Shown piece after piece: positions 19,729 to 38,021 of a stretch of 64,000 nt of DNA. How positions within the stretch are numbered: the stretch's first letter is position 1; each line of letters begins with the position of its first letter. A program made the position numbers and the translations under genes. The notes below the pieces were generated by a model. The model saw only the letters and a list, made by a program, of their open reading frames with translations. It had not been told where the DNA came from and made no database searches. The stretch comes from Eledone cirrhosa (Eukaryota): positions 107,694,001 through 107,758,000 of the forward strand of contig OZ024745.1 in assembly GCA_964016885.1 (NCBI GenBank), written 5' to 3'.

Positions 19729-19916
19729 AACGAAGGAAATGTGGTAAGGAACCAGGTGGACCATAACGCACCAAAGTACTCAATACTTGAGGTAGTAGAG
19801 TGGGTAATAGGAACCAGTAAGACCCCGACAGCTGAGCTCAAGCCGTTTCGACGGCTAATTCAGAGAATTAGCCGTCGAAACGGCTTGAGCTCAGCTGTCG
19901 GGGTCTTACTGGTTCC
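19729..19916. mobile_element. PLE mini-element: inverted 3' end plus a forward segment ending GGTTCC, in (TA)n
   Basis: 19729-19860 is the reverse complement of 19429-19560; ~19864-19916 matches ~19427-19479. Confidence 0.85.
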
Positions 19917-20119
19917 TATATATATATATATATATATATATATATATATATATATATATATATATATATATATATATATATATATATATATATATATATA
20001 TATATAATATGTATCACTTGATATCAAATATAATATACTATTATATCATCTCCACCATCCTCTACCGCCCACTTGGACATTCTCAATGAGCCCCCCCCCC
20101 CCCCCCCGCCCGAGGTGAG

Positions 20120-20153
20120 GAGGTGGGCGTCGCACCCACTTTCAAAACCTCTG
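20120..20153. mobile_element. Possible hAT/Charlie-type MITE right end
   Basis: CCCACTTTCAAAACCTCTG followed by ATCTAGAG (NTCTAGAN-type target); left end not found. Confidence 0.35.
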
Positions 20154-20417
20154 ATCTAGAGCTAAATATTTTCAGCAGCGCGTTTTACAAAGTAGGTGTG
20201 TAATTTTGTGAGAGCATGAAAGTTGATTTAGTAGATTAGGGTAATTTGGGGTCTGTAATTAGATACTACGTGGGATATAATTAGATACTACGTGGGATAT
20301 AATGAACGCCTATCAAAGGTTGTATCTGTTTAATTTTAATATCACAATGTCATTGAACGTTAACTAAACTGAAAGTTCGGATAACTGAACAATTGAGTAT
20401 TCATTAATAGTTTATGT

Positions 20418-20635
20418 GGAGTGGCAGTATCGGTAGAGCGTCGGACAATATACTTCACAGCATAGAGTTACGGCCCTTTGCGGTCTGAGTTCAAATCCCA
20501 CCGAGGTTAGCTTTGCCTTTCATCCTTACGGAGTCGATAAAATAAAGCACCAGTAATACACTGAAGTCGATTTAATCAACTTCCCATCTATTTGCTTCCC
20601 CAAAATTGCTAGCCTTGTGCCTATATAAGAACTCA
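20418..20635 (+). mobile_element. SINE, long form
   Basis: Family motifs. Confidence 0.85.
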
Positions 20636-20708
20636 TTATTATTACACCAAATTAGTTCAAAGGTCACTATAAATAAGATACAAATAAAAGGTTATTATAA
20701 TAGAGAAT

Positions 20709-20894
20709 AGGGCGGTGGATTGTCAGTATCGGTAGAGGGTTTGACGCCATGCTTTCCAGCATAGTTACGTCCCTTTACGATCTGAGTTCAAATCCCGCCG
20801 AGGTTGACTTTGCCTTTCATCCTTACGGGGTCGATAAAATAAAGTACCAGTAATGCACTGGGTAATTGCTGGCCTTGTGCCTAAAGTAGAAACA
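20709..20894 (+). mobile_element. Young full-length SINE, short form
   Basis: A and B boxes; TSD ATTATAATAGAGAAT (20694-20708 / 20895-20909). Confidence 0.93.
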
Positions 20895-21161
20895 ATTATA
20901 ATAGAGAATGCCTATTTTAATGGCCACAATGACTTTACCATGGTGCAATAGTTTTAGTTCCATCAATGATCTCGGGCCAGATATATACATCTCAGGAGTA
21001 AATGGTGATTTATATTATTCAGTATTTCTCACAGAGATGAACATCTAAATTAAGAGAAAAGAGTAATTGTAAAGTCCCTTACGACAGTCCCAATACACAA
21101 CATCAGATTACGTTATACTTTAAACGACATGACACTTTACACCACTAACAAAATAGCTTGA

Positions 21162-21385
21162 AGAGTTGGCTACCCGCAGGCGTGAGACTCTCGAGTTGTA
21201 ATGGCTCGTCCAACGTGTCACTCTCACCATCTTCCGGGTAAACGCCTTCTCTATTCTGTCCGCTGGGGACGCGAAGCGGTCAGCACTTGGGCCCACATTT
21301 GCTCACAATAGTGAGAGATGTAGAGAGCGAGAGAGACGAAGGCAGTGACAATGGGAGTTTGGTTCTTTTGTGTTCGGACTTGTTG
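21162..21385 (+). mobile_element. Second CRE-like 3' fragment
   Basis: Colinear with ~13743-13965. Confidence 0.7.
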
Positions 21386-34145: not shown

Positions 34146-35685
34146 ATTATTATTGTCATTATTATTTTACGCTTCTATTCCCTCATCACTGAAACCACCC
34201 CATTACTATCAGGAGGAACGGATGGATCAGGATCAGGATCAGGAGGATCAGGATCAGGTGATCAGGATCAGGATCATCAGGATCAGGTGATCAGGATCAG
34301 GGTGATCAGGATCAGGATCAGGATTACGATCAGGATCAGGATCAGGATCAGGATCAGGATTAGGATCAGGATCAGGAGGATCAAGATCAAGAGGATCAGC
34401 ATCTGGAGGATCAGGAAGATCAGGATCGGGATAGATGTCTGAATCTGGATCGGGATTGGGACCGAGGTTTGGATCTGGATTGGGATGAGGATGAGGATGA
34501 GGATCAGGATCAGAATGAGGAGGATCAGGATGAGAAAGAAATATTCAAAATGAATAGCAAACAATGTGTAGAATAACAAACATTTGTGTTGAGATGGCAC
34601 AGAACAGAATGAAAAGGAAGATAATCGATGAGATTTCAGTATTGAAGAATGTGTCTTCGTACAGAGGACAAAGGTCAGTTCGTGTTATTTCATATTAACA
34701 TGGTCTAATCTTACCATATCGATTTCACGCCGACATTTTCACTATATTTCTCTAAATTAACAAACTAATTGATTGAAGAATCACGAATGCTTCATGCAGC
34801 CGACTGACTAAGTTAATCCAAGAGTAATATCGTCCATATTGACTTGGATGCTTAGTATATTGCCCGGTCAACAGAACAGATGAAAAGAATGGAAAGAAAG
34901 GAGTCGTCCGTGATATTTTGACTTATTAAAAATGGACGAAAATATTAGAAATATTCTTACTGCTGTCAGAAACACTCCCCGAAACAACTCTATGAAATGA
35001 TTAACTTTCGGAAAATATCGTAAACGGCAGGAGTTATTGTGAATAGAAAATTATAAACAATGTCATTTGAACCATTAGAAATAAGTGGAAAATAGCCAAA
35101 CATCGACGAAAAATATAAAGGAGGGTATGTTGAAGAATAAATGAGATGAGAGGCAAGTGAAAAGAATAGAAATTAAGGATGGGGGGATAAGTATCCAAGA
35201 GGGCAAAAATCAACAAATTTCACGATCTCATTCGAATTGCAGATAAGCTGAGAGCTGAAAATCGGATCTGCTACGGATGGAAACGAAATATTTTATGGCT
35301 TTGTTATTAGAAAATATAATGTTGACCTGACTCATAAATCTAAGCTGCATATATTTACGGTAATGGAGAAATATTTTAAGAGCAATTTCGTGAAAGAAAC
35401 CAAAGTTGTTATTATGGCATAATGCCAATTTATTAATCTATACTTGTGGGAATCATAACGTCCACTGTTCAACTCCAATAGGGATCCATAAGTGTATCTA
35501 AATGACAATGGGTAGGTCTTTGTTAAATAAGCTAGTTGTATATATCATAATTCTTGTTTCATCTTACATTTCTTTACGACACCACTTATTATCTCGATAA
35601 AGGGTCTAATTATTTTCGTATCATATCAATCTGTGGAGAAAACGAACACTTAGGGGATATTTATGGTCTATTATTTATTCTAAAG

Positions 35686-35870
35686 GGCGGTGGATTGGCA
35701 GTATCGGTAGAGGGTCGGACGCCATGCTTTCCAGCATAGTTACGTCCCTTTACGATCTGAGTTCAAATCCCGCCGAGGTTGACTTTACCTTTCATACTTA
35801 CGGGGTCGATAAAATAAAAGTACTATTAATGCACTGGGTAATTGCTGGCCTTGTGCCTAAAGTAGAAACA
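35686..35870 (+). mobile_element. Young full-length SINE
   Basis: TSD ATTATTTATTCTAAAG (35670-35685 / 35871-35886). Confidence 0.93.
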
Positions 35871-35954
35871 ATTATTTATTCTAAAGAGTGATAGCATAAT
35901 AGCAAATATTTGTCTGGTTATAAAACTAGAATTAGAGACCCTAATGTGATTATA

Positions 35955-36945
35955 ATTGTTTATACATTCAGCACAAGATCAGCAATTTTAGGATAGGGGG
36001 AAATTGATTAAATTAACCCCGGTGCATTACTGGTGCTTTATTTTATCGACTCCGTAAGGATAAAAGGCAAAGCTAACCTCGGTGGGATTTGAACTCAGAA
36101 CGTAAAGAGACGCAACTATATGCCGCAAAGCATGTTATCCGACGTTCTACCGCCTATTCTCCATCCTGCGTTAATTTAATAATAGATATTCATATTCATA
36201 CATAACATATTTATGTGGTATACGTTTTGATACAAACATACTCTGTCGGTATGTTAGTAAGTCTTTAGCTCATAAATGTTGGTTACTTCAAAAGCCACCC
36301 TGAATAAATATTGGTTTCTTATATAGGCACAAGGCCAGTGATTTTGGGGGAGGGGAAAGTCGATTAAATCAACCACAGTGCGTGACTGGTACTTTATTTT
36401 ATCGACCCCGTGAGGATGAAAGGTAAAGTTAGCCTCGGCGGGATTTGAACTCAGATCATAAAGGGCCGTAACTCTTTGCTGCAAAGCATGTCGGCCGACT
36501 CTCTACCGATACTGCCAATCCACCTCCCTCTCGCCCTGAATAAATATTAGCTTTCATTCAGTGATGCTGTTAGAGAATATCAAGTCACCAACAAGATCAG
36601 TGAAAATGTCATTAATTGAAATTAAAAATATTACTCTATCCAGATATACCACAAGCAATGTTTATATGTAATACGTTCCCTCTAGTCCCTTAATTTTTAG
36701 TGTCATAAGCTGCGGAATTGGTAATTATTATTCTAAAGTTTAGATACATTGATAATAATTGTTTTTACTTTAAACACAAAGCCAGCAATATGAAGGGGAG
36801 GGGAAAGTCGATTAAATTTACCCAGTGCATTACTTGTGCTTTATTTTATCAACCCCATAAGGATTAAAAGCAAAGCTAACCTCGATGGAATTTGAACTCA
36901 GAACGTAAAGGGCCATAACTCTATGCTACGAAGCATGTTGTCCTA
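35955..36945 (-). mobile_element. Three long-form SINEs (~35955-36152, ~36313-36530, ~36757-36945)
   Basis: Family motifs; the middle copy has TSD CCCTGAATAAATATT. Confidence 0.85.
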
Positions 36946-37045
36946 AACTAATAAAAATATTATGAATCGTTTGACTACTTCAAATATACATTCTCGATAA
37001 AAACGTTTGAAAACGTGAATGTATTTCATTATGTGTCTTAGATTT

Positions 37046-37227
37046 AGGCGGTGGATTGGCAGTATCGGTAGAGGGTCGGACGCCATGCTTTGACGCAAAG
37101 AGTTACGGCCCTTTCCATTCTGAGTTCAAATCCCGCTAAAGGTTAACTTTTCCTTTCATCCTTACGGGGTCGATAAAATAAAGTATTGCACTGGGTAATT
37201 GCTGGCCTTGTGCCTAAAGTAGAAACA
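37046..37227 (+). mobile_element. Young SINE
   Basis: TSD ATTATGTGTCTTAGATTT (37028-37045 / 37228-37245). Confidence 0.93.
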
Positions 37228-37898
37228 ATTATGTGTCTTAGATTTCTTTCGTCCCTACGGTGTTGTACCAGTAATAACATCCTACCCTCTCCATAATTGT
37301 AGACTCGGTGCCTAAATCAGAAACCGTTATATGTCCTAAACTTTGGAAAAATAACATACAGGAATTTAGACTCACATGTCATTTGTTACAATTTAAATGA
37401 TAATTAAACAGCTAGAATTTAGACCCAGTATTTAGTATATTTACGTAAGATTTGGTGGAGCGTCGGACATGTTTTATAGCATAGAGCAACCAGCACCGGT
37501 GTGATATCAAAGGATAAAACAGTTGTGTGAAAGAGTTGATATGTCGCAGGCAAACGATAGCATCTTTCTGAAACTGATGCGCTTGATCGCTATCACTATG
37601 CTGTGACGTGGAATGTTTTTTGCCTTCTTACGCCCGTTTAACCCAACGCAACACCTACGAACAAGCAGCTCAATAATTAGCAACTGTATATATATATATA
37701 TATATATATATATATATATATATATATATATACATATTATATATAAATATATATACGCGCACACACATGCATCTCTCTCTTTCTCCTTCTCTCTCTCTCT
37801 CTCTCTCTCTCTCTCTCTCTCTCTCTCTCTCTCTCTCTTTCTCTCTCTCTCTCTCTTTCTCTTTCTTTATATATATATATATATTGATACATATATAT

Positions 37899-38021
37899 AA
37901 CGAAGGAAATGTGGTAAGGAACCAGGTGGACCATAACGCACCAAAGTACTCAATACTTAGGGTAGTCCAGAATTAGCCGTCGAAATGGCTTGAGCTCAGC
38001 CGTCGGGGTCTTACTGGTTCC
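37899..38021. mobile_element. PLE mini-element in (TA)n (60-bp inverted terminus plus a forward segment ending GGTTCC)
   Basis: Same two endpoints as 19729-19916 and 31318-31452, different internal junction. Confidence 0.88.

Follow-up and report, generated by a model that had tools for sequence, protein, structure and literature searches.

How do short insertions arise that share both outer ends to the base and differ in what lies between them? Three of them are found in a 64,000-nucleotide stretch of the Eledone cirrhosa genome (assembly GCA_964016885.1, contig OZ024745.1, positions 107,694,001 to 107,758,000, forward strand), here called the window and numbered from its first letter. An earlier reading of the window, made from its letters only (the sequence-only reading), had described three loci in (TA)n tracts with common edges, at 19729-19916, 31318-31452 and 37899-38021, and these are present as described. 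Judged by their sequence, these loci are insertions of the smallest kind that a young Penelope-like element (PLE) of the Hydra clade leaves, and the rule that they follow, one fixed 3' end (site A) at one edge and a second fixed 3' end (site B), inverted, at the other, holds for nearly all insertions of the family in which both ends could be typed.

At each locus, the left edge following (TA)n is AACGAAGGAAATG (at 19729, 31318 and 37899), the reverse complement of the end of a large element at 19560 (site B), and the right edge is CTTACTGGTTCC, then (TA)n (at 19916, 31452 and 38021), which equals position 19479 in the large element (site A). The inverted arms are 133, 13 and 68 nt long. The earlier values of about 132 and 13 bp are thus borne out, and that of 60 bp for the third is not; 60 nt is obtained only when a subfamily variant is taken as the junction, and BLAST extends the arm to 37966. 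The first insertion lies within the (TA)n that follows the large element on its 3' side, and the A arm of the second includes the whole hammerhead as well as sequence that is not in its B arm. In their inner junctions the three are unusually variable. The features concerned are:

19729 to 19916, no strand assigned: mini insertion 1, inverted B arm 19729-19861, 2-nt insert (AG), A arm 19864-19916
31318 to 31452, no strand assigned: mini insertion 2, 13-nt inverted B arm 31318-31330, 5-nt insert, 117-nt A arm 31336-31452
37899 to 38021, no strand assigned: mini insertion 3, inverted B arm 37899-37966, A arm 37963-38021, 4-nt overlap
17289 to 19560, + strand: one-armed copy of the parent PLE that is truncated at its 5' side and ends at site B; its identity to an intact tandem copy on C1 is 99.5 %
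17289 to 18275, + strand: 3' part of its open reading frame (ORF), with the end of the reverse transcriptase (RT), a CxCx5C linker and a putative GIY-YIG-type endonuclease (motifs by eye)
19374 to 19467, + strand: predicted type I hammerhead with a U3-A8 core, UUGAGAA at 19379-19385, a long stem II and a palindromic loop III; predicted cut after 19462
19393 to 19400, + strand: TATA-like word TATTTAAA, a putative promoter element 29 nt upstream of the common stop, overlapping hammerhead stem II
19418 to 19429, + strand: common 5' stop of both arms (TCATTT/TTAGTC), from arm stops and public contigs; putative transcription start
19479 to 19482, + strand: site A, the inner fixed 3' end, where the template TAT matches the (TA)n target
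19560 to 19562, + strand: site B, the outer fixed 3' end, where the template TAT matches the target; A to B is the 81-nt 'tail'

Positions below are also given relative to 19422 (position 0), so that site A is +57, site B is +138 and the hammerhead 3' product starts at +41.

The sequence-only reading had named a PLE as the parent, and the ORF, the tandem arrays of pseudo-long terminal repeats (pseudo-LTRs), the hammerhead fold and the Hydra-clade motifs agree with it. The best 40 of 413 candidates in a genome search with 19360-19560 were all 100 % identical and included arrays with a 3,531-bp period. An intact array copy carries a single ORF of 717 aa that starts 231 nt past position 0, and its predicted structure (pLDDT, the predicted local distance difference test score, 93) finds TERT as its best match among solved structures (3du5, E 3e-8); sequence searches of Pfam and PDB with this ORF gave no match. 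A GIY-YIG-type endonuclease motif (VIYQC..AYIGLT) was recognised by eye at the C-terminal end, and the Pfam GIY-YIG domain scored only in the top homologue, P0001 (39 % identical), over just 26 residues. Comparison by eye with the published Hydra-clade list located RWR, DKT, the CxCx5C linker and CxxC..E..N..CxH. Tandem units forming pseudo-LTRs (the 3,531-bp arrays), inverted 5'-truncated copies and a tail at one end are all present in the family. By its motifs and target, the parent is assigned to the Hydra clade of endonuclease-containing (EN+) PLEs. Identity to the intact copy is at least 99 % in 73/161 elements with both an A and a B end, and pure TA of at least 8 nt adjoins both sides of 137/161, though most of these were anchored on TA at one end.

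Sites A and B are sharply defined. Site A lies 17 nt downstream of the GUC cut predicted at 19462, the distance given in the sequence-only reading, which had also anticipated two sharp endpoints in opposite orientations. Exact words running from an end into (TA)n occur genome-wide 7,247 times for site A and 21,662 times for site B, and reversed control words have no match for either, so that the end words are far in excess of chance. The excess of B arises because its word is common to older subfamilies. Words reading through the site number 7,623 at A, about 1:1 with A ends, and 337 at B. When 30 arms were anchored on an internal word and so were not chosen for their ends, 15 ended at A, 14 at B and one elsewhere, and the 29 that end at A or B continue into TATATA. 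At one locus (L331) an A end adjoins TATCATC instead of (TA)n. Loose ends into (TA)n at the same two sites, plus many different inversion joints, were found in public run data, in the form of assembled contigs and not of raw reads, from at most two samples of one study that is possibly the assembly's own source. A search for empty sites that would show growth of (TA)n returned matches only to the element itself or to simple repeats. Relatives that have diverged, with (CA)n adjoining their A-equivalent end, were seen at L043:5464-5582 and L162:1943-2064, with only 1 and 4 exact genome matches; at L043 the flanks are (TG)n on the left and (CA)n on the right, inverted about the element.

Pairing of the two sites was counted in 267 distinct elements, drawn from loci L031-L320 and from the window by four anchors (A, B, an internal word and an upstream word); most lie in the first 120 Mb of C1. 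They comprise 161 A-B elements, one A-A, one B-B, 74 one-armed elements and 30 with a diverged or atypical end, about 10 of which are older subfamilies whose A-equivalent end broke the alignment. Hence, one A end is combined with one inverted B end in 161/163 elements in which both ends were typed. As the A-anchored sample is blind to B-B and the B-anchored sample to A-A, each was considered separately: the former holds 81 A-B and no simple A-A elements, the latter 45 A-B and one B-B. At L059, a nested locus, both outer ends are likewise of type A. Long elements of up to several kb obey the same rule, and a diverged family (L322-L325) has the A-B layout at 4/4 loci by eye. Letters diagnostic of subfamilies are common to both arms (97/99 at site +37). 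An atypical end at the common stop was seen at L083:447-1523, where an inverted arm running upstream from position 0 is paired with a B arm that stops at 0.

Scattered inner junctions had been expected from the three loci of the window. Instead, both arms stop within -8 to +12 of 19422 in 76 of 117 simple A-B elements not selected for their 5' ends, with the exact stops peaking between -4 and +6, and a second sharp stop lies at the hammerhead cut. Mini insertion 1, with arm stops at +6 and +5, belongs to the first class. All but three of the 117 (114) are no longer than 260 bp, and their median length is 190. The stop positions recur as loose ends in public contigs, and genome-wide the word just inside the stop occurs 35,249 times and that just upstream 2,167 times. 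In the unselected set, read-through past this zone affects both arms in three elements and one arm in three (Fisher p=1.5e-4); in all 151 simple elements, among which upstream-anchored ones are included and long copies therefore enriched, the figures are 30 and 6. The arm stops are at most 20 nt apart in 6/30 long elements, where shuffling expects 1.0 (p=2e-4), and some long elements have shared stops of their own, at -1126/-1135 and -299/-304.

At the junctions themselves there is no overlap in 15, an overlap of 1 nt in 16 and of 2-6 nt in 16, against chance expectations of about 26, 13 and 8, and an insert is present in 28. Junction strings are distinct in 53/64 cases and inserts unique in 27/27. 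Template jumping is a behaviour of RT that runs off the end of an RNA, and jumps from the common stop onto ends internal to the ORF (+231, +253 or +958) were found at L121/L273, L272 and L277; such joins are expected of RT running off the end of an ORF-containing RNA. The common stop near 19422, with the TATA-like word 29 nt before it, is likely to be the start of the transcript. A bacterial promoter scan, a type of scan not applicable to this DNA, found nothing. Multi-segment insertions in which several segments from the same 5' position are joined to ORF-internal ends are seen at L121:1504-2227 and also at L272 and L277, and at L291:3171-6742 the inversion junction of a long A-B insertion holds a 55-bp piece of the element repeated in tandem about 65 times, a junction-born minisatellite.

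The three stems of the pseudo-LTR fold as a type I hammerhead, and the U3-A8 core, a variant published for PLEs (PMC4209133, seen in part), is present in 115/117 copies read. An Rfam scan returned no hammerhead family, only hairpin and AT-driven matches below gathering scores. The common stop falls inside stem II and most stumps, as we call the short insertions, therefore lack the stem I 5' strand and the catalytic UUGAGAA, so that the units, thought at first to be ribozyme-bearing, mostly are not; only the second locus of the three in the window has the whole motif. The predicted cut nevertheless seems to have left a footprint. Both arms stop at +41 in five sampled elements, which is 5/8 of the elements that have any such stop (p=2e-7), and at 101 loci genome-wide both arms end at the cut with 0-2 letters between them. 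Controls shifted by -3 and +4 gave 0 and 3 loci, the first control being 6 letters longer. All 15 loci read from this search are A-B (two were already in the earlier sample), with no insert, T or A between the arms. Because the hammerhead cut is specific to sense RNA, the template would be sense RNA, and the 101 loci are the strongest, though indirect, sign that cut RNA likely exists in the germ line. They likely also mean that the ribozyme is active in living cells; RNA sequencing gave no such ends for the single PLE studied in vitro (PMC11167929).

We consider it reasonably probable that a single sense RNA is primed at A and at B by the two ends of a break in (TA)n, and that both complementary DNAs (cDNAs) run off its 5' end. 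The sequence-only reading had already proposed that the two ends of such a break act as primers, and this is retained here as the best model. The family, the fixed ends, the A/B pairing, the common inner stop and the diversity of junctions are read directly from the DNA; the steps that would connect them are our reconstruction. The endonuclease would cut both strands of (TA)n, and each 3' end would pair with UAU at A or B, held by an RNA-protein complex that probably has two RT active sites. Both cDNAs would then be extended to the 5' end of the RNA, the copy from B displacing that from A, and the two cDNA ends would be joined head to head via template jumping or end joining. The template would set the length of the arms: stumps of about 190 bp would derive from the 5' copy of A and B in a transcript starting near 19422, which would carry both sites in its 5' untranslated region, so that a stump primed at them would lack most of the ribozyme; those of about 115 bp would derive from the 3' cleavage product of the hammerhead; and long or full-length copies would come only from the downstream copy of A and B in an uncut read-through transcript.

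More tentatively, and with somewhat more doubt than conviction, we propose that PLE integration is two-ended by design and that the hammerhead acts as a switch, cleavage in the downstream pseudo-LTR diverting most events into stumps of 115-190 bp. A cut just upstream of both priming sites would strip the ORF-containing RNA of the distal A and B, and only uncut transcripts would yield autonomous copies. If so, the stumps are a fossil map of the 5' ends of the RNA of the element.

Several observations weigh against priming of one RNA at both sites or blunt the evidence for it. The sampled loci lie mainly in the first 120 Mb of C1. The TAT match does not explain the choice of site, because nearby TAT words at +82, +102 and +188 are unused, and Frangieh et al. 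reported that initiation in vitro occurs without target homology and that neither strand favours a start site (PMC11167929). The ratio of 35,249 to 2,167 is inflated by subfamily variation, a safer comparison being 2,167 with about 14,900 young arms. The letter before 23 arms that start at 19422 is G in 11, C in 10 and A in two, and a cap-derived G is not evident. The doubled segment at L121 is possibly a later duplication, as two segments have a common variant, and gene conversion, or the use of two RNAs dating from one period, would likewise be expected to give the two arms common subfamily letters. B arms halting at site A, as collision would give, are few (three at +57 to +59) and a weak signal. 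Finally, the arm stops are far apart in 24/30 long elements, so that premature stops or trimming must be added to the model.

Unequal arms are what would be expected if two RNAs, one for each subunit of an asymmetric protein pair, were primed at A and B, with the common stops reflecting the RNA pool of the cell. This arrangement would explain the A/B pairing if the complex is asymmetric, as well as the 24 long elements just mentioned, and a dimer has been predicted for another PLE (PMC11167929). We nevertheless regard it as unlikely, since it does not easily give the same rare stop on both arms, as seen at the cut (5/8, p=2e-7) and in the private stops at -1126/-1135 and -299/-304.

Somewhat harder still to credit is a single priming event followed by fold-back, either by snap-back of the cDNA or by self-priming on an antisense RNA, with the endonuclease cutting the hairpin and thereby setting the ends and the tail. 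Most of the mini insertions are indeed near-palindromes with the A arm contained in the B arm, junctions with templated inserts occur, and the idea has been published for PLE inverted repeats, antisense self-priming by Arkhipova et al. 2013 (PMC3846280; PMC8557442; both seen in part). However, in 38/151 simple elements the A arm extends >10 nt further 5' than the B arm while the tail is only in the B arm, as at loci 2 and 3 of the window, and here neither arm can be a copy of the other. Many junctions at the hammerhead stop also lack any spacer, and stops at a cut in sense RNA speak against an antisense template.

Later deletion of the palindromic middle from long two-armed insertions is improbable as the origin of the stumps. 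Long A-B elements do occur in the same family. Palindromes are unstable, but deletions would not end at one base (101 loci against 0 and 3), and less perfect palindromes would be expected. Of the 161 A-B elements, 73 match the intact copy with an identity of 99 % or more.

Scarcely any credence, and slightly less than for deletion, attaches to the amplification of one or a few master units of the miniature inverted-repeat transposable element (MITE) or other non-autonomous type, even though sizes cluster near 190 bp and a few junctions are found two or three times over (the 37 insert-free junctions include 26 distinct ones, the 5th percentile of an independent-trimming null with a mean of 28.9). 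A single amplified MITE had been named beforehand as an outcome that would speak against the proposal, and it was not seen: the 53/64 distinct junction strings and 27/27 unique inserts show no single internal structure, on which ground a MITE or self-copying non-autonomous family was rejected, and the long elements and the diverged family (L322-L325) have the same layout. Because junction letters differ between copies, each unit has probably arisen separately and not as a copy of one MITE, and the stumps, once described as non-autonomous units, look like dead-end products and not like a family that copies itself. An artefact of assembly or of long-read fold-back at (TA)n, which might be suspected of palindromes in self-complementary repeats, is almost certainly not the explanation, given the fixed asymmetric ends, balanced strand counts of end words, mutations between arms, and the recurrence of these ends and joints in public-run contigs.

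Twin priming, which had been invoked for these loci, offers in its L1 form a parallel to the priming of one sense RNA at A and B. As Ostertag and Kazazian reportedly described in 2001, two target ends prime one L1 RNA and give an inverted head-to-head product with little homology; the first primer reportedly sits at the poly(A) end and the second at a variable internal site, with arms adjacent on the template. Twin priming of the classical L1 type, so defined, was rejected here, as neither priming site varies, each of them is internal, and in most elements the two arms cover overlapping parts of the template.

Related systems are found among the PLEs. In the parts of the literature seen, an inverted truncated copy with a tail often at one end only is a published feature of PLEs (PMC8557442; PMC3846280; PMC2377424), and pairs of hammerheads on opposite strands 100-700 bp apart were reported by Cervera and De la Pena (PMC4209133). 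The EN+ Hydra-clade elements of Craig et al. 2021 (PMC8557442, seen in part) resemble the present one in a C-terminal endonuclease (putative here), RW(R), DKT, CxCx5C and CxxC..E..N..CxH, as well as in the hammerhead, insertion into (TA)n, tandem arrays, the inverted 5'-truncated copy and the one-ended tail. They differ in that the published units are generally <3 kb and the tails 30-40 nt, compared with 3,531 bp and 81 nt here, and in that stump-sized products here far outnumber long copies; the passages covered give no counts of end pairs or inner stops. In Poseidon PAc, from the green anole (Frangieh et al. 2024, PMC11167929), RT likewise starts at two fixed internal sites, which lie downstream of the hammerhead and delimit the tail, and the target is AT-rich, both of its strands being cut and extended in vitro; a dimer is predicted. 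However, no difference in start site between the strands was seen there, while different sites are used at the two ends in 161/163 elements here; no homology to the target was seen there, while TAT matches at both sites here; and no RNA-seq reads ended at its ribozyme cut, while 101 loci stop there in this genome. The animal non-LTR retrozymes of Li et al. 2026 (bioRxiv 10.64898/2026.07.22.740005, seen in part) are also short non-coding derivatives of PLE pseudo-LTRs, but they are direct tandem repeats with whole ribozymes, unlike the inverted two-armed units described here, which mostly lack a complete ribozyme. Identity with non-LTR retrozymes was rejected because the units are inverted and mostly start inside stem II.

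The element class and its general layout are thus known, and the strict A/B pairing, the common stop and the cut footprint appear to be new and testable regularities. Our literature search, the scope of which did not extend to subscription journals, supplementary figures or Repbase, found no end-pair counts, common run-off stop or in vivo cut footprint; supplementary figures S1-S2 of Frangieh et al. and Repbase entries may already show part of this. Such two-armed units are not described in the passages covered of the Octopus vulgaris repeat annotation. The origin of PLE inverted repeats and of the one-sided tail, and the role of the hammerhead, are stated as open questions in PMC8557442 (seen in part), and the present family offers thousands of young natural products that separate models of PLE insertion by A/B pairing, a common stop and a base-exact stop at the cut. 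About 10,000 or more MITE-looking palindromes in this genome (28 pairs per 100 core words x 35,249) are likely by-products of retrotransposition. The model is directly testable with the existing in vitro PLE assay.

Stumps are often found in the (TA)n next to a further member of the family, so that chains form and larger palindromes seem to be present (L049, L135, L196, L210, L293, L298 and window 19560-19729). Older remains of the family were also recognised in the window by sequence match:

15460 to 15506, + strand: older one-armed B stump
15638 to 15670, + strand: older one-armed B stump

An old relative of the pseudo-LTR (77 % identical) lies at 22852-22959. At the 5' junction of the large element (16936-17288) there is a short templated-looking insert, GTAAAGCGGTGTAAACTTC, with an inverted repeat of it across a (TA)113 tract, likely a fold-back repair scar. 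Copies of a repeat resembling a short interspersed nuclear element were recognised by eye at about 15950-16150, 16690-16870 (reverse), 20420-20640 and 20720-20900.

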